Shown here: positions 6,116 through 50,540 of the stretch, piece after piece | How the letters are laid out: each line of letters begins with the position of its first letter | Numbering within the stretch: position 1 is the first letter of the stretch | Origin: Candidatus Poribacteria bacterium | GTDB taxonomy: Bacteria > Poribacteria > WGA-4E > PCPOR2b | NCBI GenBank assembly: GCA_022567695.1 | Contig: JADFGN010000001.1 | Location: 1 to 51,576, forward strand | DNA length: 51,576 nt | Direction: 5' to 3' | Made by a program: the position numbers and the translations under genes | Notes under the pieces: model-generated | The model's database searches: none | What the model saw: the letters and a program-made list of their open reading frames with translations, nothing else | What the model was told of the DNA's origin: nothing

Positions 6116-6916
6116 TTATTGAGTTTTTTTGATGTTGCCCCATGTGGTTGTTAGTTTGTCAGCAGGTTCTACAGGAAGTGCCGATTCAAAACCTAGGAAA
6201 ATCGCCTGAACCTCCTCTTCAGTCAGCGCCACATTGAAAATCGCAACTTCGTCAATAAGGGCGTTTCCAAATCTCGGTGCGCAACATTGATCCTGTCCAA
6301 TCCAGAGGACATCAAGATCCTCCGCAATCGGTGTTTTAGTAAGATCAAGCTCGCTCTCTACTACCGCATCGATATAAATTTTCCACTCACCGGTTTTGCT
6401 ATCGAAAGTGCCGGTGTACATATGCCATTCGGTAATATCTTTGGGACCTACTGCTCCGTCGTTCCATCCTCCTGGCTGATTCCAACAGCCGCCATTGCAA
6501 AGAGGGAAAGCTACAACAGTAGTCCCCTGATCGGGATGAATAATATACGCGTCCCGTTTTGAAACAGCAAATCCGTGCGTACCCCATGCAGGAGTGGGGC
6601 TTTTCATCCATAATGAGACGGTTATCGCTTTTGTTGGATTTTTATGCGCTGGCACCTCAACAAAAGCCGCTTTGCCGTCGAACTCTAGTGCTTTACCAAA
6701 CACACCATCGACCCATTTCGGATTACCTTTAAGAGCTCCGTCAAGTTTATTGCCAGAAGAATCTTTGGCAACTTTTCCTGTCCCTTCATCAAACAGCCAT
6801 AACCCCGTAATCGTAGCGGGGTCAATTTCGGCGGCAATACTTTGGCCTGCGGGTATGAGCCCAATAACCATTAGACTGATACACACGAGGGTGATTCTTG
6901 ATACCATGACTTTCAT
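6116..6916 (-). CDS. Secreted LamG/concanavalin-A-like lectin domain protein with C-terminal KLTTTWGNIKKTQ tag
   Basis: 266 aa with a signal peptide. The LamG-type pattern is GLWLFDEG.G....D.SGN...G.L.G.P.WV.G.FG.ALEFDG....V.V. It is a paralog of 7140-7946. Confidence 0.8.
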   Translation of the reverse strand: MKVMVSRITLVCISLMVIGLIPAGQSIAAEIDPATITGLWLFDEGTGKVAKDSSGNKLDGALKGNPKWVDGVFGKALEFDGKAAFVEVPAHKNPTKAITVSLWMKSPTPAWGTHGFAVSKRDAYIIHPDQGTTVVAFPLCNGGCWNQPGGWNDGAVGPKDITEWHMYTGTFDSKTGEWKIYIDAVVESELDLTKTPIAEDLDVLWIGQDQCCAPRFGNALIDEVAIFNVALTEEEVQAIFLGFESALPVEPADKLTTTWGNIKKTQ

Positions 6917-6975
6917 CTTTTACTACCTCCTATTTTTCATTGTTCTAACTTCACTTTAAATTGCGAAGTGCCAGC

Positions 6976-7004
6976 ATTATAGCACAGTCGCAAAGAAAAT
7001 TCAA
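6976..7004 (-). promoter_or_regulatory. Sigma70-type promoter TTGAAT-17-TATAAT
   Basis: The minus strand reads TTGAATtttctttgcgactgtgcTATAAT. The -10 element is about 60 nt upstream of the ATG at 6916. Confidence 0.6.
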
Positions 7005-7056
7005 CGACGAAGAAAATTGACCATTTTTCCACAAACCGTGGGGCATCATTCATTCA

Positions 7057-7097
7057 CCCCAAAACCGCTCTTAGAAAAACTGAGAACGGTTTTGGGG
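7057..7097 (-). terminator. 11-bp hairpin downstream of the LamG gene at 7140 (no clear T-tract)
   Basis: CCCCAAAACCG (7057-7067) pairs with CGGTTTTGGGG (7087-7097). Confidence 0.3.
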
Positions 7098-7139
7098 TGT
7101 TCTGATTAATCATTTTAGTCTGGAAACTCACATTACTCG

Positions 7140-7946
7140 TTAATATTGGGTTTTAACATTAGCCCATGTGGTTGTTAGTTTGTCAGCGGGTTCTACAGCC
7201 GCAAGTACCGACACAGAAAGTCCATTGTTCATGAGGTCTTGAATGTCGGCTTCACTCAGTGCCACATTGAAAATCGCAACTTCGTCGATGGTGGCACTTC
7301 CATATCTCGGGTCGCAACATTGATCGCGTCCAATCCAGAGGACATCAGTATCCTCATCGACCGGAGTTTGATCAAGGTCAAGAGTGCTCACGACTTCCGC
7401 ATCGACATAAAGCTTCCACTCACCCGTTGAACTATCAAAAGTGCCCGTGTACATATGCCACTGCGTGATATCTTCGGGCCCCGTTGCCCCGTCGCTCCAT
7501 GCGCCAGGCAAGTTCCAACAGCCGCCGTTGCAAAGAGGGAAAGCAACATCGGTAGTACCCGAATTTGGATGAATAATATACGCGTTCCTTTTTGACACCA
7601 GAAATCCGTTCTGACTCCATGTATCAGTCGGGCTTTTTACCCATAGTGAGATTGTTATGGCTTCAGTCGGATTTGAATGCGCCGGGACCTCAACATAAGC
7701 CGCCACACCATCAAACTCCAGCGCTCCACCAAATCTACCAGCGACCCATGCCGGGCCATCTATGAGCGTTGCGTCAAGACCGGCGCCAGAAGAATCACTA
7801 GCAACACTTCCGCTACCGTCATCAAACAGCCATAATCCCGTAACCGTGTTGCGGTCAATTTCGGCAATACTTTGACCTGTGAATATTAGCCCAGTAAGAA
7901 TTACACTGATACATACCACCGCTATTCTCGCGACTCTAACTTGCAT
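7140..7946 (-). CDS. Secreted LamG/concanavalin-A-like lectin domain protein with C-terminal KLTTTWANVKTQY tag
   Basis: 268 aa with a signal peptide. It aligns along its full length with the 6116-6916 product and shares the CNGGCW and DQCC cysteine motifs. Confidence 0.8.
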   Translation of the reverse strand: MQVRVARIAVVCISVILTGLIFTGQSIAEIDRNTVTGLWLFDDGSGSVASDSSGAGLDATLIDGPAWVAGRFGGALEFDGVAAYVEVPAHSNPTEAITISLWVKSPTDTWSQNGFLVSKRNAYIIHPNSGTTDVAFPLCNGGCWNLPGAWSDGATGPEDITQWHMYTGTFDSSTGEWKLYVDAEVVSTLDLDQTPVDEDTDVLWIGRDQCCDPRYGSATIDEVAIFNVALSEADIQDLMNNGLSVSVLAAVEPADKLTTTWANVKTQY

Positions 7947-31301: not shown

Positions 31302-32222
31302 ATGAAAAAATACATCAATTTATGTGTTGTTGCAATCTGTGCGGTTGCTTTTCTCAGTGGATGTGGCAGCCACAATGAACACCTTTCTAAAGGTAAAGAA
31401 CTCATTAAATCTGACAAGAGGCGTAAAGAGGAACGTGCTGTTAGAGAGTTTAAGCTGGCGATTCAACAAGAATCGGATAATGCCGAAGCCCTTTATATGC
31501 TGGGATATTATGACTCTCAGGATTTTTACGACGCCCAAGAATCTAGTGAAGACTGGCAAGCGGCTGACACTGAGAGCCGCGGCGAGCATATGTTCGAAGC
31601 TTATCAGCAGGAGGAACGCAAATATCGCGAAATCCTTGTGTTTGAAACCCTAAGAGATGACGATCTGGGAGTGCAAAGTGCCGCACTCGATGCGCTGAAA
31701 CGTATCTACGAACGGGGCGAGGGCGATAAGAAAAAACTGCTCAAGGCGTTGGAAAAGGCAATTAAGTCCAAGGACAATCGAGATCGGCACGACGCGCATT
31801 GGGTGCTGGCTGAAATTGGAAAATATGAAATTGGAAAAGACCGGCCGAGTCAAATCGTGCCAATTCTTGTGAAACTGCTAGACCACAAACGAAAAGAGAC
31901 ACGTCTCAATGTTGTTAAGGCACTCGGTGAAATCGGCAGTGAGAACAGCGTTGACGAATTGGTAAGGATTGTCAACTCAGGTTCTGAAAAACGTAAAAGA
32001 AACAGAGAACATCCCGAAGTGCGGCGGCTTGCGGTCGAAGCATTGGGAAAAATCGGTGGTCGTGCTGTCGAGGAATTGGTCAAGATTGCCCAAAATAAAG
32101 GTTCATCGCTGCGTGTTGATGCGATTCAGGCATTAGCCAAACTCGGGGATGAGCGAGCCGTGAAGCCGTTATTAGATGTTTTGAGCGCGCAGGGAAGCCG
32201 AGAAGTTCCGGTCAAATTCTAG
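31302..32222 (+). CDS. HEAT-repeat (PBS-lyase-type) lipoprotein
   Basis: The lipobox is FLSGCG. Repeated units of the form VVKALGEIGSENSVDELV, AVEALGKIGGRAVEELV and AIQALAKLGDERAVKPLL are present. Confidence 0.7.
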   Translation: MKKYINLCVVAICAVAFLSGCGSHNEHLSKGKELIKSDKRRKEERAVREFKLAIQQESDNAEALYMLGYYDSQDFYDAQESSEDWQAADTESRGEHMFEAYQQEERKYREILVFETLRDDDLGVQSAALDALKRIYERGEGDKKKLLKALEKAIKSKDNRDRHDAHWVLAEIGKYEIGKDRPSQIVPILVKLLDHKRKETRLNVVKALGEIGSENSVDELVRIVNSGSEKRKRNREHPEVRRLAVEALGKIGGRAVEELVKIAQNKGSSLRVDAIQALAKLGDERAVKPLLDVLSAQGSREVPVKF

Positions 32223-32299
32223 TTGAAATGTTGCATGAATCAGTGTCATCCTGACGCAAAACTAAAGACTTACGAAATACAAAATAAAGAGGAGTATTC

Positions 32300-33679
32300 A
32301 TGTTTGGGAAAATAAAGTGTTTGTTTTTCGTCTTGATTGTGATGGTCGTTGTTGGATGTGCAGACAATCAATTTTACGATGAGCAGCTTCAAATGAAAAT
32401 CCAACAATTAGACAGTGACTTAGCGAATCGATGGTCCACGACGGGGGTGGTCGTCATATCACCGGGCAAAGCGAACCTTGAGCAAGGTGAATTGATCTCT
32501 TATGTGATTAGCGAATATCCCATCAACAGTCGCAGGGATTATAAACGTGCAATCAAGCGCGCAATGAAGAAAGATAATAACTTTGTCTTTCTTATGGGAG
32601 ATGGAGCCAAGATTCGTATCGCCGTCCGAAGGAGCGGTGATAAAGTTGGTATTGATGTCGATGGAAATCGGGTCAGCAAGGTGGATGCGGGAAGTCCTGC
32701 GGCGAACGCCAACATTCAGGTGGGGGACACCATCAAAAGTGTGATTGATGAGCGAAAGATTGCGACGATTAAGGATTACAAGAAAGCCGTTAAAGAGTCT
32801 CCAATTGCATTCCGCACGACTGAATTGGTTGGGGTCAAGCTTGCCGCTGTAGATGCCCTCGGTAACTTGGGGGACGCACGGGCTGTGGATGCTTTGGTAA
32901 ATATCCTCGAAAAGAGTTCAGAAACTTCTCTGCGCAAGACAGCAGCTAAAGGGCTAGAACGCCTTGTGGCTTTGAGCCAATTGAACGGACTGTTTCAGAA
33001 ATTTCAACAAGCAGATGCCAATGAGCTTCCTGCGAATGAATTAGATTCGCGTCAACGGGAATCTGCCGAAATCCTCGGCTTGCTTACAGTCGATCTTGAG
33101 AAAAATCAGGCGACCTTAAATGAACCATTTGGTACACAATTTCGGCAAAGGTCTAAAGCGTTGCATCAAAGGGTCAACCAAGAGACTCTCGGTGAATTGG
33201 CAACAAAATATATCAAGCGTCAGATCGAACCCAACCCAGAGATTCGACGGGCGTGCATATCTATTTTGGGAACTTTGAAACCAGAATCTGCAATTGCAGA
33301 CCTAATCGCTGTGATGGAAGATAGCGTAGAAGTCCGCGGCATTCGTTTTCAAGCGGGGCTAACACTCAGTCAGATTGGCCAGTCCGCAGTCCAGCCTCTC
33401 ATTGACGCCTTCAATCGTGGCGATGTCGGTGTCAAAGATATTGCGGCATCTGCACTTGGTAACATCGGTGGGAGCAAAGTGAGAGATGTTTTAATCCATA
33501 TACTTCCAACCATAGAGGACCCAACAATTAAGCTCACGGTTGTTGACGCCATTGCGAAAATTGGCGATAAGCAGTCGATCAATGCACTTCAAGAAGAAAA
33601 AATGCGACTCCAAAAGGGCAGTGGTCTGGGAACATTCCTCAATGAACTGCTTGCACAGCTTGAAGCACAATCGATGTAG
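32300..33679 (+). CDS. PDZ-domain plus HEAT-repeat lipoprotein
   Basis: The lipobox is VVVGCAD. A PDZ-like segment VSKVDAGSPAANANIQVGDTIKSV is followed by HEAT units (AVDALGNLGDARAVDALV and others). Confidence 0.65.
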   Translation: MFGKIKCLFFVLIVMVVVGCADNQFYDEQLQMKIQQLDSDLANRWSTTGVVVISPGKANLEQGELISYVISEYPINSRRDYKRAIKRAMKKDNNFVFLMGDGAKIRIAVRRSGDKVGIDVDGNRVSKVDAGSPAANANIQVGDTIKSVIDERKIATIKDYKKAVKESPIAFRTTELVGVKLAAVDALGNLGDARAVDALVNILEKSSETSLRKTAAKGLERLVALSQLNGLFQKFQQADANELPANELDSRQRESAEILGLLTVDLEKNQATLNEPFGTQFRQRSKALHQRVNQETLGELATKYIKRQIEPNPEIRRACISILGTLKPESAIADLIAVMEDSVEVRGIRFQAGLTLSQIGQSAVQPLIDAFNRGDVGVKDIAASALGNIGGSKVRDVLIHILPTIEDPTIKLTVVDAIAKIGDKQSINALQEEKMRLQKGSGLGTFLNELLAQLEAQSM

Positions 33680-37058: not shown

Positions 37059-37093
37059 CATCCCGACATTCTGCGTTGCTAAAAGGAAGACGC

Positions 37094-37783
37094 ATGCCAA
37101 ATCCCTGTAAAGTTAAAATTTGCGGAACAACCAGCGTTACCGACGCCCAGATGGCGGCAGAGGCGGGAGCGGATTTCTCCGGAATCGTTGTCGAAGTGCC
37201 TTTCTCGGAGCGATCTGTTACGGTCGATCAAGCCACTGAAATCGCTCAACAAACGCCAATTCCGACCATTGTGTTGGTGTTCGATCGCTCGACCAATTGG
37301 GTACAATGGGCAACCGAGCAAATTAAGCCCTTTGCCATCCAGTTGCTTGGTCATGAAACGCCAGTCGAAGTTGCACAGCTCAAACAATTGGTATCATGCG
37401 AAATCTGGAGATCACTGTTTCTGCCGGTAGGTAGCAACCTCAAAGTTGATGTTAATCCCATTCTGGATGAAATGAAAGCACACATTGATGCAGGTGCCGA
37501 TGCCCTCCTATTCGACACTGCCGACTTCAGTTCAGGAAAAGTTCGATTTGGCGGAACCGGGAGAACTAGCGATTGGCACGCTGCCGCTCAATTAATCGAC
37601 GCCTGCGAAATTCCAGCGTTTCTGTCTGGAGGAATTCGCCCCGAGAATGTCAAGGCAGCGATTGAAGCTGTCGGACCGTATGGCATCGATCTCTGTTCAG
37701 GGGTCGAATCGACAAAAGGGGTACGCGATTTCAGAAAACTGAATCGGCTGATGCAGCAAGTAAAAGCGGTTTCGAGTTTATAA
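37094..37783 (+). CDS. trpF: Phosphoribosylanthranilate isomerase
   Basis: KICG, FSGIVV, QLLGHE, GGTG, FLSGGI and GIDLCSGVE follow the TrpF pattern. The ATG at 37094 has an AAGGAAG SD. Confidence 0.8.
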   Translation: MPNPCKVKICGTTSVTDAQMAAEAGADFSGIVVEVPFSERSVTVDQATEIAQQTPIPTIVLVFDRSTNWVQWATEQIKPFAIQLLGHETPVEVAQLKQLVSCEIWRSLFLPVGSNLKVDVNPILDEMKAHIDAGADALLFDTADFSSGKVRFGGTGRTSDWHAAAQLIDACEIPAFLSGGIRPENVKAAIEAVGPYGIDLCSGVESTKGVRDFRKLNRLMQQVKAVSSL

Positions 37784-45496: not shown

Positions 45497-46813
45497 TTAT
45501 CGAAAATTGGGAGACTGCTTCAGCATTCCTCTAAATTTTCGGCGTCGTTCTTGAACTGCGTTCTTAGAATACAGGTTTTTCGATAGCCACAGAAAACCCT
45601 CCTGAAGCTCGTCAACGGTCATATTTTTAGGCAGGAAGTTAATATCAAAGAGTGTACAGAGTTCCCATGCTCTGTCTCGAATAATTCGCCCCTCTTTCTT
45701 TAACCGATGGTACAGCGGCGTACCGGGAAAAGGGGTCATAAAAGTGATCTGCACCTCATACAGCCCTGAATCTCTGACAAAATTGTATACCTCTTCGAAA
45801 ACAGCCGGGGTATCGCCATCTAATCCAAGAATAAAACAACCATTGACCGTAATTCCGTGAGATTGAATTTTCTCAATCGCCGCTCTGTATTTTCCTTGCT
45901 TCCTCATTTTCCAGTTGGCGTTCAATTCAATTCCGTCTAAACTGTCTCTCCGTGGACTTTCCAAGCCGATTAATACTTGCTTACAGCCGGAATCACGCAT
46001 CAAACCCAAGAGTTCGTCGTCTTGAGCGACAGAAAGATCTGTCTCGGTAAACCAGCGGAGGTTTTCTTTTGCCAACGCTCTTAGAAGTTTTTTATAATGT
46101 TTGCGATGGACAAAGCTATTGTCATCCGCAAATTCGATAAATGGTCTGTTCCAAATGCCTTTGATGGCATGGATCTCTTCGATGACCTTTGGCACAGGTT
46201 TGAGTTTATACTTCGAGGTCAAAAGAATAGAGCTTGCGCAGAACTCACATCGGTGTGGACAACCCCTGCTAGTCTGGATAGTGATGCGGTTGTATTTGTC
46301 TGGCTGAAGTAAATCATAGCGGGGAATCGGCGCATCCGCCAAGTCAAAACCTCCCGGTTCAGATTGAAAATAGTAGGGTTTGAGTTGATCTTTCTCGAAG
46401 TCAGACAGAAGTTGAGGCCAGAGCGGTTCTGCTTCTCCGATAACAACGCTGGTGCTGTGCCTCTTGGCTTCTTCGGGAATCGAAGACACATGCAAGCCAC
46501 CCATGACTACGGGAATATTTCTCTGTCGATACCGGTCGGCGAGTTCATACGCCTCGTGAATCTGTGCAGAAAATGAACTAATCGCCACCAAATCGTAGTC
46601 CAGAAAATCTGTTTCATCCTTCAAGTCGGCAATTTCTTTATACTCCACTTCAAATTTCTTTGGCGTCAACGCAGCTAAAGTTAGAAGCGACAGACTAGGC
46701 AGAGAAGCAATAACTTTGCCGCGTTCTACAAAGCCGGGGAGTGTCAAACCGAGTTGGGTGAGTTCTTCATTGTGTGCGCGTATGCCACTCATCGCAATCA
46801 AACCGATTTTCAT
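45497..46813 (-). CDS. B12-binding-domain radical SAM protein
   Basis: The N-terminal B12-binding-like domain begins MKIGLIAMSG... The cluster motif is QTSRGCPHRCEFCAS. The ATG at 46813 forms an ATGA overlap with the upstream stop, so the longer ORF-track start at 46954 is rejected. Confidence 0.8.
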   Translation of the reverse strand: MKIGLIAMSGIRAHNEELTQLGLTLPGFVERGKVIASLPSLSLLTLAALTPKKFEVEYKEIADLKDETDFLDYDLVAISSFSAQIHEAYELADRYRQRNIPVVMGGLHVSSIPEEAKRHSTSVVIGEAEPLWPQLLSDFEKDQLKPYYFQSEPGGFDLADAPIPRYDLLQPDKYNRITIQTSRGCPHRCEFCASSILLTSKYKLKPVPKVIEEIHAIKGIWNRPFIEFADDNSFVHRKHYKKLLRALAKENLRWFTETDLSVAQDDELLGLMRDSGCKQVLIGLESPRRDSLDGIELNANWKMRKQGKYRAAIEKIQSHGITVNGCFILGLDGDTPAVFEEVYNFVRDSGLYEVQITFMTPFPGTPLYHRLKKEGRIIRDRAWELCTLFDINFLPKNMTVDELQEGFLWLSKNLYSKNAVQERRRKFRGMLKQSPNFR

Positions 46814-47202
46814 GATGCAACCTCCCATAATGTCAGAAAGCCAGCTAGGATTAAGCTGATGACTGGAATTGCGAAAATAGTTCTCAATTTGGAATAATGC
46901 GCCATTATGATACAGCAGATGGGCATTGATATCGCTCCAACCACGAATCCCCATGAAGCGATGTCAATCAAGCGACTAGGCGCGTTAAATCCTTGAACCG
47001 TAAAATAAAACATGAGATTCATGATGGCTAACCCGAAAAACGAGATATGAGCCAACCGATAGAGTCTCCGTTTAAAACTCGTGTAACCTCCTAGCCATGA
47101 TTCTCCATGAAAGCCTAAGCCGAGAAGAAAGCCGGAAACAAAGCCTAGAACAATCCAGAGCCAGGCCAAAATCAAGTTGATTTGCACGACGCTAAAATCC
47201 AT
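46810..47202 (-). CDS. Small integral membrane protein (4 predicted TM), unknown family
   Basis: 130 aa, strongly hydrophobic. Its stop codon overlaps the radical-SAM start (ATGA). Confidence 0.6.
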   Translation of the reverse strand: MDFSVVQINLILAWLWIVLGFVSGFLLGLGFHGESWLGGYTSFKRRLYRLAHISFFGLAIMNLMFYFTVQGFNAPSRLIDIASWGFVVGAISMPICCIIMAHYSKLRTIFAIPVISLILAGFLTLWEVAS

Positions 47203-47414: not shown

Positions 47415-48245
47415 TCATCCGTCACCGGAATTATTTGGTTTGGTGCAAGTTTTAAAATAATAGTGATCAATCCGCCCGTACTTCCTATAACCAATGCGTT
47501 GGGCAAGCCGTATTGATGGGACGTTCATCTTGCGTGCGGCATACACAGGGAGCTTGCCTCTGTCCAAAATCCAACGTGTTGCAGCAGAAACGACGGAGGC
47601 AGCAAGTCCTTCACCTCGATGCGCTTCTCGCGTCTGCAGTGCGCAAATTTCCATCGTCCGCTTGGTGCGCGGCTCAACAAATGCTCCCGAGATGAGTTCT
47701 TCCCCCTGAAAGACACCAAACACGGCAGTATCTGGCCGGGCAAATATCTGTTGGAGATGGTTTGTCGTTCTGCCTGAATGCGTGAAAAGATCGGTTGCTT
47801 GAGGGATATGATGCGCTGCTAATTCGATGACGTTGTGTTCCCGCCGGTCAACGAAATCACACGGTATCAACATAAAATAAGACAGGCCTCCCTTCCATTC
47901 AAGCGATAATCGTCCCATGAGATGTGCCGCAATCCATGGACGGTGAAGTTTGAACAGGAACTCCCGTTTGGGAGGAAGCCGATCAATGAGTCCATCGACG
48001 CCCGCCGTTGAAAGCGACTGTATCCAAATTCTTTGCCAGCACGTCGGATACTGCGCGGCATCCCATGTCCCCGGCTGGGGAGGTTGTATAAATAAAACAC
48101 CGCTCGATTGAGGCATAGAATCAAGCCAGATTTCCAAATTAGCAGGTGGAGCGTTAAGCAAGCGAATCATCGGTGCGTTGACCAATTCATCTTCATATAA
48201 TAGTGACTGAACTCCTTCGAAGTCAGTTGTTTGGGTTATCATCAA
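47415..48245 (-). CDS. GNAT-family (FR47-like) acetyltransferase with N-terminal domain of unknown function
   Basis: 276 aa. The C-terminal GNAT core is ICALQTREAHRGEGLAASVVSAATRWILDRGKLPVY...NVPSIRLAQRIGY. It overlaps the argD stop by 4 nt. Confidence 0.65.
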   Translation of the reverse strand: MMITQTTDFEGVQSLLYEDELVNAPMIRLLNAPPANLEIWLDSMPQSSGVLFIQPPQPGTWDAAQYPTCWQRIWIQSLSTAGVDGLIDRLPPKREFLFKLHRPWIAAHLMGRLSLEWKGGLSYFMLIPCDFVDRREHNVIELAAHHIPQATDLFTHSGRTTNHLQQIFARPDTAVFGVFQGEELISGAFVEPRTKRTMEICALQTREAHRGEGLAASVVSAATRWILDRGKLPVYAARKMNVPSIRLAQRIGYRKYGRIDHYYFKTCTKPNNSGDG

Positions 48246-49435
48246 GCGACCTCCTTAAGGATTTCGCCAAACGCATCAAGTCCATGCCAGAGCAGCTCTT
48301 CAGGGATGTTGAGGGGAGGGAACAGACGAATCACATTTCCTGCGGCACGATTATATAACACACCGCGTTCGATTCCCAGAGAGACAACCATTTTTGCCGC
48401 TTCATCTGATATAAGCTCGACACCAATCAGCAATCCTTTGCCGCGTACCTCTCGAATAAGTGTGGGGAAGGCAGCTTCAATCTTGCGCAACCGAGTCATT
48501 GCAGCCTTTCCGGTATCCCATGCTCTTTCCGCCAAGTTCTCAGCAAGAAGCGTTTCGATGACCGCGTCCCCCACCGCACATGCAAGTGGATTCCCCGAAT
48601 AAGTTCCACCGTGGTCACCAAGCTCACAAGTGCGCATCACTCGTTCAGACGCCAAAAACGCGGCGAGTGGGAAACCGCCTCCAATGCCTTTACCGAGGCA
48701 GAGAATATCGGGAACGATATGCGCGTGCATACAGCCGAGGAAAGCCCCCGTTCGCCCGATTCCCGTTTGGATTTCATCCAAGATTAGCAAAATCCCCCGC
48801 GAATCACAAAGCTCACGAACTCCACGCAGATATGCGGTTTCAGCGACGTGTACTCCCCCTTCACCCTGAATCGGCTCCAAAATCACCGCAGCCGTGTGTT
48901 CGGTGATTGCCTCTGAGATTGCCGCCAGATCATTGTACGGGACAAATTGAAAACCGGGCAGTAGTGGCTGATGGGACGCTTGATGCTTGGGCTGTCCCGT
49001 TGCAGAAAGGGCTCCAAGCGTGCGTCCGTGAAAACTATTCAGCGTCGAAATAATTTCCGTTTTGCCCGTTGCTCGACGCGCCAACTTAAGCGCGCCTTCT
49101 ACAGCTTCTGTGCCACTGTTGACAAAGAAGACCCGATCAATGCCATCAGGACAGGCTTGAACAAGCCGCTGGGCAAATCGGCTTTGCGGGACGGTATAAA
49201 ATAAATTTGAAACCTGCATAAGTTGCTTCGACTGACGGGCAATCGCCTCGATGATTTTTGGATGACTATGTCCCAAGCAACATACACCCCATCCTGCGGT
49301 CAAATCAAGGTATTCGCGTCCTTCAACGTCCCAAACCTTTGCGCCACGTCCTTCTACGAGAACAACTGGATGGCGAGGAAACACTTGCGCATAATATTGA
49401 CGTTCCAGTGAAATGAACTTCTCTGTCTGACTCAT
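48242..49435 (-). CDS. argD: Acetylornithine aminotransferase-type class III PLP aminotransferase
   Basis: 397 aa. Motifs are SNLFYT.PQ, FFVNSGTEAVEGALKLAR, SFHGRTLGALSATGQPK, EPIQGEGGV and LLILDEIQTGIGRTG. An AAGGAG SD lies upstream. Confidence 0.85.
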   Translation of the reverse strand: MSQTEKFISLERQYYAQVFPRHPVVLVEGRGAKVWDVEGREYLDLTAGWGVCCLGHSHPKIIEAIARQSKQLMQVSNLFYTVPQSRFAQRLVQACPDGIDRVFFVNSGTEAVEGALKLARRATGKTEIISTLNSFHGRTLGALSATGQPKHQASHQPLLPGFQFVPYNDLAAISEAITEHTAAVILEPIQGEGGVHVAETAYLRGVRELCDSRGILLILDEIQTGIGRTGAFLGCMHAHIVPDILCLGKGIGGGFPLAAFLASERVMRTCELGDHGGTYSGNPLACAVGDAVIETLLAENLAERAWDTGKAAMTRLRKIEAAFPTLIREVRGKGLLIGVELISDEAAKMVVSLGIERGVLYNRAAGNVIRLFPPLNIPEELLWHGLDAFGEILKEVA

Positions 49436-49456
49436 GTCTTGCTCCTTTCTACAAAC

Positions 49457-49501
49457 AAAAAAAGCCCACTATCAACATCGAATTTGCTGTTGATAGTGGG
49501 C
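49457..49501 (-). terminator. Attenuator terminator 21 nt upstream of the argD ATG
   Basis: On the minus strand, GCCCACTATCAACA (49501-49488) pairs with TGTTGATAGTGGGC (49477-49464) in a 14-bp perfect stem, followed by T7 (49463-49457). The upstream GATAGTGGG (49560-49552) can pair instead with the 5' arm. Confidence 0.7.
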
Positions 49502-49555
49502 TTGTAGATAATTGATCTATTTTACGATGAATGCAACAAAGTTAAAGACCTCCCA

Positions 49556-49690
49556 CTATCCGCTTCTTGAACGCCTGACGCGGATGAAGGAAATTTGGGA
49601 GATACGACTCACGGAGGTATGCGTATGCAAACTTATCATGCGAAAGTCATGAGCAGATAAATTGAATGAGATTTGTTTGAAACTCTGCAT
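49556..49690 (-). CDS. Candidate leader peptide (44 codons, C-terminal ...IRVRRSRSG)
   Basis: A GGAGGA SD lies 7 nt before the ATG at 49690. Four Arg codons (CGC, AGG, CGT, AGA) occur in the last eight sense codons. The TAG stop lies inside the antiterminator arm. Confidence 0.45.
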   Translation of the reverse strand: MQSFKQISFNLSAHDFRMISLHTHTSVSRISQISFIRVRRSRSG

Positions 49691-49716
49691 AAAATTCTCC
49701 TCCGAAAGTGGCTCTT

Positions 49717-49745
49717 ATTATATCGAGTGATTCACTGGATGTCAA
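49717..49745 (-). promoter_or_regulatory. Consensus sigma70 promoter TTGACA-17-TATAAT for the argD leader
   Basis: The minus strand reads TTGACAtccagtgaatcactcgaTATAAT. The -10 element is 27 nt upstream of the leader ATG. Confidence 0.65.
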
Positions 49746-49940
49746 TCTTTTTTGCAGTCGAATTTATGAAAGATATTGTGATGAGTTATTGAATATGATA
49801 TATTAGTCGACGTATTTCTCGTGACGTGATTATGGATAATAAGTGTTCTAAAAGCATTCAAAACGTTGAGAATTTATTAGGCTATCACCTATGAAAAAGG
49901 GCTTCGGTTTAATCCCCCGACTAACAGGAGATAAAGATTA

Positions 49941-50540
49941 ATGGCATACAGTGATTTTTCATTGGAGGACATCAAAACGAAGTTTCAGATCGCAATTTCC
50001 GAGGATGTGAATCTTTTCGGCGACACCAAGCCTTTTGATATCTCGGAGGGGCTTTTAAATACTCTTGAAGATAATATCCCTCTAGCACTTGCCATTGATA
50101 CTGAAAAAGCACGCTCCGAATTTATCATTGCCCCGATATTGGCTGAATACCGGAAGACCTTCAAGGATAAAATCAGCTTATTTTCCGGCACAGACTTTAA
50201 TGTCGCCCCACAACAGGGACTCAATGGTCAATGCGATTTTATTATCAGCCGCTCGACGGAGCAATTTTACGTGAGTACTCCCGTAATTTTCCTCGTTGAA
50301 GCTAAAAATGATCGAATCAAAACGGGCATTCCCCAATGTTTTGCCGAAATGATTGCTGCCCAGATTTTTAACGAGCAAAGAGAAAATGAAATTGATACGA
50401 TTTTCGGTGTCGTATCAACGGGAAGCTTATGGAGATTTCTAAAGCTCGTTGACAATCAAGCATATATCGATTTAGAAGAATATTACGCGAGGGAGATAAG
50501 AAAAATCTTTGGCATATTCGCGTATATGATTGAGGAATAA
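49941..50540 (+). CDS. PD-(D/E)xK nuclease-fold protein (HSDR_N-like), function unknown
   Basis: 199 aa with an AGGAG SD. The motif GQCDFII...VIFLVEAKND fits D...ExK. It looks AT-richer than its neighbours. Confidence 0.55.
   Translation: MAYSDFSLEDIKTKFQIAISEDVNLFGDTKPFDISEGLLNTLEDNIPLALAIDTEKARSEFIIAPILAEYRKTFKDKISLFSGTDFNVAPQQGLNGQCDFIISRSTEQFYVSTPVIFLVEAKNDRIKTGIPQCFAEMIAAQIFNEQRENEIDTIFGVVSTGSLWRFLKLVDNQAYIDLEEYYAREIRKIFGIFAYMIEE

Follow-up and report, generated by a model that had tools for sequence, protein, structure and literature searches.

The window analysed here is a stretch of 51,576 nucleotides (nt), positions 1 to 51,576 of contig JADFGN010000001.1 in assembly GCA_022567695.1, deposited as Candidatus Poribacteria bacterium. 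It carries argD, the gene for an arginine-pathway transaminase, and directly in front of this gene a leader with its own promoter, a short open reading frame (ORF) that ends in a cluster of arginine codons, and an intrinsic terminator. A first-pass annotation of the sequence had taken this leader for a transcription attenuator in which translation of the ORF governs the expression of argD. Here we ask how well this idea agrees with the conservation of the leader in related loci, with the structures that its RNA is predicted to form and with the positions that a translating ribosome would occupy.

The leader and argD

Coordinates are those of the window and refer to its minus strand unless the plus strand is named. 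Three lineages of the locus are compared throughout: lineage A (the window, L003, L004 and L013) and two diverged metagenomic ones, lineage B (L005-L008, L030 and L031) and lineage C (L009). In the order of transcription the features are as follows.

49748-49753, minus: A-tract resembling an UP element, a putative function; the A-run is common to all three lineages in the alignment and its flanks differ
49717-49745, minus: promoter TTGACA-17-TATAAT, a 12/12 match, with hexamers invariant in lineages A, B and C
49698-49703, minus: Shine-Dalgarno sequence (SD) of the leader ORF, GGAGGA, 7 nt before the ATG
49556-49690, minus: leader ORF of 44 codons plus TAG, with its ATG at 49690; the frame is open in all lineages
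49571-49582, minus: putative regulatory codons CGC-GTC-AGG-CGT (R-V-R-R), codons -8 to -5 counted from the stop
49580-49601, minus: region 1, whose core AUCCGC (49585-49580) pairs with GCGGAU and whose lineage-specific extension CUCCCA...UUCCUUC is predicted to pair with the remainder of region 2
49550-49563, minus: region 2, GCGGAUAGUGGG(AG), predicted 5' arm of the antiterminator, which contains the UAG stop; invariant in all lineages, with 9 perfect pairs to region 3 in 8/8 sequences
49488-49503, minus: region 3, AAGCCCACUAUCAACA, by folds and pair counts an arm common to antiterminator and terminator
49457-49477, minus: region 4 (UGUUGAUAGUGGGCUU) and U7 tract, which by folding form the intrinsic terminator with region 3; no substitutions within lineages
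49442-49447, minus: SD of argD, AAGGAG, recognised in the sequence
48242-49435, minus: argD, acetylornithine/succinylornithine-family transaminase (TIGR00707; Pfam Aminotran_3), the putatively regulated gene

The -35 hexamer TTGACA (49745-49740) and the -10 hexamer TATAAT (49722-49717) are separated by a 17-nt spacer, and this 12/12 match is unique within the 4.6 kb scanned. The ORF that follows encodes MQSFKQISFNLSAHDFRMISLHTHTSVSRISQISFIRVRRSRSG. Its final eight sense codons read CGC GTC AGG CGT TCA AGA AGC GGA, four of them specifying Arg. The TAG stop (49558-49556) sits within a 9-mer, GATAGTGGG (49560-49552), which recurs in the 3' arm of the terminator (49473-49465) and is complementary to CCCACTATC (49500-49492). 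The terminator consists of the arms AAGCCCACTATCAACA and TGTTGATAGTGGGCTT followed by T7 (49503-49457); its stem has 15-16 bp and a folding energy of -26 kcal/mol. From the T-tract to the argD ATG at 49435 there are 21 nt. The product of argD (397 aa) is a class-III aminotransferase that scores 445.5 bits against TIGR00707, the NCBIfam argD subfamily, where the cut-off is 410.

Much of this had been described correctly in the first-pass annotation: the promoter, the leader SD with its 44-codon ORF, the stop codon inside a copy of the terminator arm that can pair with 49500-49492, and the SD and start of argD all lie where it placed them, and the gap behind the terminator indeed leaves no room for a further promoter. 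The terminator with its T7 is there as well, only with a stem of 15-16 bp and not of 14.

Arginine biosynthesis is the textbook case of control by a repressor (ArgR/AhrC), with T-boxes in some Firmicutes. In the stretch 49700-49900 we found no ARG-box operator (TGAATwwwwATTCA-like, E. coli-type consensus only) with three or fewer mismatches, and matches to the same E. coli-type consensus across the whole window are below chance. The promoter itself is probably constitutive and strong. A consensus promoter with an A-tract and without an ARG box suggests that control is exerted mainly after initiation.

Relatives of the locus

In a large protein collection there are four closer ArgD clusters, 99%, 99%, 76% and 70% identical to the ArgD of the window; the exact protein is not on record. 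The loci compared here come from the contigs of these clusters, from one JGI contig and, in two cases, by way of the leader peptide; L030 is from a 5.2-Mb contig. ArgD identity to the window is 76% in lineage B and 70% in lineage C. The order of promoter, ORF, duplicated arm, terminator and argD is the same in all three lineages. The first-pass annotation had staked its proposal on relatives keeping the ORF, the Arg cluster and the alternative pairing, and at these ArgD identities all three are kept. The gene upstream is divergently transcribed in every lineage. It differs between lineage A, with a 199-aa protein of no known family, and lineage B, with a short-chain dehydrogenase; in lineage C it is an unannotated, truncated ORF of 239 residues. 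The terminator is therefore not that of a neighbouring gene.

Beyond these lineages the leader was not recovered. ArgD relatives of 55-58% identity (L024-L029) have no leader, upstream gaps of 62-154 nt and different neighbours, so that the family could not be widened. Scanning GTDB representative genomes with ArgD gave only distant relatives (41-43% identity) and no useful upstream regions. A profile of the leader peptide found only lineage-B variants among 5.8 billion proteins and, among 1.84 billion representatives, only the lineage-B representative P0241 and two spurious long proteins. When metagenomes were scanned for the pattern GCGGATAGTGGG-N35-65-CCCACTATC, 14 matches were obtained, about the number that we would roughly estimate for chance; L013 is the only true copy among them, near-identical to the window, and the rest are unrelated. 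With the leader alignment as query, nhmmer detected a single copy at each locus; the remainder of the window and of the 20-kb lineage-B locus contained no other. By the measure of these searches, the element occurs in one small clade only, which is probably poribacterial.

Some of these loci deserve a remark of their own. Several of the chance matches (L015 1-170, L018 1150-1290 and L023, minus strand, about 2225-2281) are long palindromes of the form (GTGGGTA/GTGGGCA)n followed by (TACCCAC)n; they are inverted heptamer-repeat arrays, unrelated to the argD leader. The leader of L013 is 98% identical to that of the window, and from about position 2013 onward its argD mismatches 27% of positions over 699 nt in a codon-by-codon comparison, which points to a frameshifting indel (an assembly error or a pseudogene). 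L004 1-60 and window 49800-49860 have unrelated sequences, the similarity ending about 95 nt ahead of the -35 hexamer, a sign of a rearrangement breakpoint just 5' of the conserved promoter-leader unit.

Conservation of the ORF and of its arginine codons

The invariant blocks of the alignments are both promoter hexamers, TCCGC-NTN-AGGCG-N8-GCGGATAGTGGG, GCCCACTATCA and TAGTGGGCTTTTTTT; the terminator is invariant in its two arms. From one lineage to the next, the first three quarters of the ORF, counted from the N terminus, and the 46-53-nt spacer that separates region 2 from region 3 can hardly be aligned. Even so, the reading frame leading to the conserved TAG is free of stops over 52, 55 and 44 codons in lineages A, B and C, and the ORFs beginning with ATG have 44, 48 and 30 codons. 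Dinucleotide shuffles of the non-conserved part yield an ATG ORF of at least the observed length in 2.3%, 1.4% and 19% of cases, respectively, and for lineages A and B one that is both long enough and preceded by an SD in 0.02%. Lineage B has the SD GGAGGG, spaced as in the window. In short, lineages B and C retain the ORF, an SD is found in A and B only, and translation of the ORF is predicted.

When members of one lineage are compared, the changes in their ORFs are almost without exception non-synonymous and situated N-terminal to codon -11. Codon -10 of L003 departs from this with F-to-S, and L031 departs from it twice, with T-to-M at -4 and a synonymous TTA-to-CTA at -3. This distribution indicates that the leader peptide itself is not under purifying selection. 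It bears on the simplest alternative to regulation, namely that the ORF is a small-protein gene with its own terminator and that argD depends for its expression on unregulated readthrough or on a promoter that has escaped notice. Gene callers did annotate the 48-codon ORF of lineage B. A protein whose N-terminal three quarters change mostly non-synonymously and cannot be aligned between lineages is nevertheless a poor candidate for a conserved product, an unrecognised promoter would have to fit into the few nucleotides between T-tract and ATG, and the duplicated terminator arm overlapping the stop codon would be left unexplained. We find this alternative hardly credible.

It is the end of the ORF that is constrained. 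The C-terminal sequences are SFIRVRRSRSG (A), SFVRVRRTLCG (B) and TVIRLRRRPSG (C), with R-[VL]-R-R invariant at codons -8 to -5 in all lineages and a single synonymous change, CGT to CGC. The conserved Arg codons are CGC at -8, AGG at -6 and CGU or CGC at -5. AGG is the rarest Arg codon, making up 7% of Arg codons in the genes of the window and 9% in lineage B. The first-pass annotation had counted four Arg codons among the last eight; all four are present in the window, and only CGC, AGG and CGT are conserved, since the AGA at -3 is not conserved in relatives.

Alternative structures of the leader RNA

The 277-nt leader folds with -83.8 kcal/mol (z = -5.5 against dinucleotide shuffles). Three alternative structures are predicted in each lineage: the terminator 3:4, the antiterminator 2:3, and a hairpin 1:2 in which region 2 pairs with upstream sequence of the ORF. 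The terminator has -24 to -26 kcal/mol in all lineages, the antiterminator, which is mutually exclusive with it, -17 to -24 kcal/mol, and hairpin 1:2 about -24 kcal/mol.

Base pairs were counted over the eight distinct sequences. GAUAGUGGG pairs with CCCACUAUC at 9/9 positions in 8/8 of them; this helix is 100% paired and none of its positions varies. In the terminator (15 pairs) 96% of cells are paired, with one compensatory change from AU to GC and two G.U changes. The core 1:2 stem, AUCCGC/GCGGAU, includes the first Arg codon and is 100% paired in the eight sequences, an A-to-G change giving G.U. The first-pass annotation had missed this conserved upstream stem, just as it had missed that AGA is not conserved. 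It had also proposed to look for covariation in the helices of aligned relatives. ORF, Arg codons and helices turned out to be conserved, and covariation to be almost absent. What supports the pairings is that both arms are conserved against a diverged background, not compensatory change.

Taking alignments and folds together, we consider it very likely that a terminator/antiterminator switch lies upstream of argD, and the sequence comparison argues that the argD leader is a real, conserved regulatory element.

One more structure touches the start of the ORF.

49607-49710, minus: predicted long-range hairpin between the leader SD region (49710-49699) and CCUCCGUGAGU (49617-49607), seen in minimum-free-energy and centroid folds

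In lineage A this pairing joins CUUUCGGAGG to CCUCCGUGAG, the pyrimidine partner lying about 85 nt downstream inside the ORF, and an analogous pairing is predicted in lineage B (L005 886-985), between UGGAGGGAA and UUUUCUCUG. Polymorphisms within lineage A are compatible with the hairpin: a C-to-U change gives G.U and another change falls in a bulge. As a speculation from the folds, such a hairpin might limit translation of the leader to the first ribosome by hindering re-initiation.

Position of the ribosome and a proposed mechanism

To relate the Arg codons to these structures we used a footprint model. The ribosome is assumed to cover the mRNA as far as 12 nt downstream (3') of the first nucleotide in its A site, and folding is confined to the RNA beyond the ribosome on the 3' side, at a stage of transcription before region 4 has been made. 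The antiterminator has a probability of 0.97 or more as long as the A site has not passed codon -5. This falls to 0.55-0.64 at codon -4 and to 0.14 or less once the A site lies anywhere from -3 to the stop. The outcome is the same in all three lineages. By these probabilities, the three conserved Arg codons are the last stall positions that still permit antitermination. The geometry proposed in the first-pass annotation, in which a stalled ribosome frees the arm and a ribosome at the stop codon covers it, thus holds in an explicit model. In the absence of a ribosome, lineages A and B have region 2 sequestered and an antiterminator probability of 0.

We suggest the following sequence of events. 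The strong promoter would start a leader transcript of about 250 nt, and a ribosome would translate the 44-codon ORF, of which only the 3' end is constrained. If charged tRNA-Arg is scarce, this ribosome would stall with CGC, AGG or CGU in its A site (codons -8, -6 and -5), melting the stem AUCCGC/GCGGAU and leaving GAUAGUGGG uncovered. The free arm would then pair with CCCACUAUC as the latter emerges from RNA polymerase, no terminator would form, and transcription would continue into argD and the GNAT acetyltransferase gene that follows it in the window. If tRNA-Arg is plentiful, the ribosome would reach the UAG inside GAUAGUGGG and cover the arm; the 15-bp terminator with U7 would form and transcription would stop near 49457. 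If there is no translation at all, stem 1:2 would sequester region 2 and the terminator would form too. The analysis shows the elements themselves, how they are conserved, that the pairings exclude each other, and the geometry. That the ORF is translated, that ribosomes stall in it, that the structures compete kinetically, that transcription is coupled to translation and that the switch responds to arginine are the steps that we infer.

Five of the seven features that define a classical leader-peptide attenuator were tested and are present here (ORF, Arg codons, terminator, antiterminator and geometry). On sequence and modelling, it is probable that the leader works in its entirety as a ribosome-mediated attenuator of the trp/his type, with Arg-tRNA as its signal.

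Weighing the proposal

Several observations weigh against attenuation by the arginine codons. Only three diverged lineages are known. The 30-codon ORF of lineage C has no recognisable SD, and in this lineage the antiterminator probability without a ribosome is 0.73, so that equilibrium prefers 2:3. Only three codons would be regulatory, with Val or Leu in between. Synonymous positions of the conserved block are nearly all invariant, which makes constraint on codons inseparable from constraint on RNA. The helices, too, are invariant, so that covariation, with one compensatory pair and a few G.U changes, lends them hardly any support. The longer, lineage-specific extension of stem 1:2 gives p = 0.09, 0.09 and 0.57 against shuffled upstream sequence; we had considered this lineage-specific pairing as evidence of compensatory evolution and dropped it, as it is no better than shuffles. 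The footprint boundary of +12 nt is an assumption, and the outcome of the geometry depends on it. Finally, once the leader is complete, equilibrium always favours the terminator. As in the trp attenuator, the choice must thus be a kinetic one, and the model requires both kinetic control and coupling of transcription to translation. To our knowledge, neither is known for the phylum Poribacteria.

Some of the same observations would suit a switch made of RNA only, in which a small ligand or a protein that binds RNA works the conserved 35-nt block and the alternative helices, and in which the ORF plays no part. The block hardly varies at any nucleotide, synonymous positions included, it is able to form a small conserved hairpin, and lineage C does without an SD. 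If the ORF were incidental, however, its frame would hardly stay open in three lineages through highly diverged sequence, or be headed by strong SDs in lineages A and B, and the Arg codons would not be expected just where stalling ceases to permit the antiterminator. The alignment contains no conserved, structured aptamer-like domain upstream of the block, and no Rfam family, T-box or PyrR-type match reaches its gathering score. We regard a switch of this kind as unlikely.

If the ribosome is the sensor, it may sense something other than a hungry codon. One could imagine that the nascent peptide [ST][FV][IV]R[VL]RR-x3-G and the ribosomal tunnel together bind free arginine or ornithine and block release at the UAG; the arrested ribosome would stay on region 2, and the terminator would form when the metabolite is abundant (compare SpeFL, TnaC and the fungal arginine attenuator peptide). 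The regulatory sign would be the same as with codon sensing. Non-Arg residues are semi-conserved at -11 to -9, the Gly-UAG ending is invariant, and SpeFL senses ornithine through an IRR-containing motif, HIRRXXH, in which Arg12 and Arg13 are essential (10.1101/604074). The conserved non-Arg positions coincide, however, with nucleotides of the stem AUCCGC/GCGGAU and of region 2, and can thus be explained by constraints on the RNA. Residues -4 to -2, next to the peptidyl-transferase centre, vary (SRS, TLC, MLC and RPS), and L003 carries F-to-S at -10. The HIRRXXH motif is missing, the Arg block stands 5-8 residues from the C terminus and not about 20, no conserved hydrophobic effector domain extends up to the stop, and the N-terminal part is unconserved. 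Such an arrest is also unnecessary, because a terminating ribosome already masks region 2. A metabolite-dependent arrest peptide that senses arginine or ornithine, holds the ribosome on the antiterminator arm and is coupled directly to an intrinsic terminator therefore seems decidedly improbable to us. If true, it would be a combination that has not been described for bacterial arginine biosynthesis.

A stall on these codons might also have nothing to do with arginine. On this view, R-x-R ('+x+') sequences would stall ribosomes under ribosome-targeting antibiotics or a global slowdown of translation, as in leaders of the erm and hflX type, and R-L-R and R-V-R match the Arg-Leu-Arg type motif of antibiotic-responsive leaders (PMC8632094). 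A general sensor of translation stress would be expected in front of a gene for resistance or ribosome rescue. The only conserved gene downstream is an arginine-pathway transaminase, and the GNAT gene is not conserved after argD. This possibility we hold to be very unlikely.

Comparison with known systems

The classical list of amino acids with leader-peptide attenuation comprises Trp, His, Leu, Thr, Ile/Val and Phe. The first-pass annotation was aware of no arginine-codon leader for argD, and in the literature searched we likewise found no description of an Arg-codon leader of arg genes; subscription journals are poorly covered there, and an earlier description is possible.

Among known systems, the argD leader most resembles in plan the enterobacterial trp, his, leu, thr, ilv and pheA leaders, the principle of which is set out in PMC1183508. 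Like them it has a promoter and an SD and, behind these, a short ORF that carries codons for the pathway's product and whose stop codon borders on region 2. Three mutually exclusive stems (1:2, 2:3 and 3:4), here predicted, follow, and an intrinsic terminator stands directly ahead of the first structural gene. It differs from them in its arginine signal, in the length of the ORF (44-48 codons versus 14-32), in having three regulatory codons arranged as R-x-R-R, in preceding a single mid-pathway gene rather than an operon, and in its uncultured, probably poribacterial host; it resembles them neither in sequence nor by covariance model. Scanning Rfam (Trp, His, Leu, Thr and Phe leaders, T-box and PyrG leader) gave nothing at gathering score in the window, L005, L009 or L031. 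In a permissive scan the best sub-threshold matches were PyrG_leader (28.6 versus 65 bits) and Trp_leader (16.8 versus 41 bits), both on the terminator hairpin only.

In fungi, the arginine attenuator peptide (the arg-2 / CPA1 upstream ORF, uORF) gives arginine-specific control of an arginine-pathway gene, as we propose for the argD leader. It differs in being eukaryotic: the nascent peptide senses free arginine, stalls the ribosome at termination and blocks scanning. There is no transcription terminator, and the effect is independent of Arg codons.

Among bacteria, one near system is speFL (orf34) of speF in Salmonella and E. coli, an upstream ORF in arginine/ornithine metabolism with a UAG at a hairpin, in which consecutive rare Arg codons slow the ribosome and alter the folding of the mRNA downstream (PMC6386406; 10.1101/604074). 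It differs in relying on ornithine-dependent arrest by the nascent peptide, on Rho-dependent termination and on RNase G sensitivity, and in inducing a catabolic/polyamine gene. The argD leader, in contrast, has an intrinsic terminator and an explicit antiterminator before a biosynthetic gene, and neither HIRRXXH nor a conserved effector domain.

More recently found uORF attenuators show the classical mechanism adapted to other amino acids in other phyla (PMC8632094; PMC8079986). The Cys-Cys uORF before cysS in Rhodobacterales (uORFC-8-2) and the Ala, Met and Thr leaders of Streptomyces consist of a uORF with cognate codons followed by a terminator, as here; none of them has Arg codons or an arg gene. 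In E. coli, the small ORF argL lies upstream of an arginine-biosynthesis gene whose expression is affected by its translation. Unlike the argD leader, argL overlaps the start of the argF coding sequence and acts on translation, and no terminator, antiterminator or Arg-codon cluster is reported for it (10.1101/511675).

Other genes of the window

The gene that follows argD in the window is the following.

47415-48245, minus: ORF for a GNAT acetyltransferase, overlapping the argD stop by 4 nt (Pfam FR47, GNAT_acetyltran and Acetyltransf_1)

Because of this overlap the GNAT gene is probably co-transcribed with argD and under the same attenuator, in the lineage of the window only. In lineage B no GNAT gene is present after argD; argD stands alone there and is followed by a convergent gene for a Der-type GTPase. 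Downstream of the GNAT gene (45497-47202, minus) come a B12-binding radical SAM enzyme with DUF4070 and a hydrophobic ORF of 130 aa, which has no family match and is also found behind the argD-GNAT pair in L004. On the other side of the leader, the divergent neighbour at 49941-50540 (plus) encodes the protein of 199 aa mentioned above, without a Pfam or NCBIfam match, where lineage B has its short-chain dehydrogenase.

No other arg genes were found in the window. A lone trpF (PRAI domain) at 37076-37783 (plus) lies directly behind a cupin-like ORF of 122 aa and has neither a leader ORF nor a terminator. The lack of a Trp leader is explained by the cupin gene directly upstream, and attenuation is therefore not general among the amino-acid genes of the window. 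Elsewhere, at 6116-7946 (minus) and 31302-33679 (plus), the window contains two adjacent Laminin_G_3 (concanavalin-like) paralogues and two adjacent HEAT/PBS-lyase repeat proteins. Sulfatase and GFO/IDH/MocA genes are also present, and together these genes agree with a poribacterial origin. The named relatives of a long helicase encoded in the window all belong to 'Candidatus Poribacteria' (61-66% identity), so that the organism is probably a poribacterium or something closely related.

What arginine attenuation would mean

The mechanism that we propose is itself already known; arginine specificity is what seems to be new, and the advance is incremental. If correct, a conserved Arg-codon attenuator would add arginine to the list of amino acids that are subject to leader-peptide attenuation. 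The element is compact (about 300 nt), and with three regulatory codons, one of them the rarest Arg codon, it may serve as a natural case for how few codons suffice. We know of no cultured members of the candidate phylum Poribacteria and of no gene regulation described for it. Should our interpretation be right, the argD leader would show the classical mechanism at work in a candidate phylum, probably Poribacteria.

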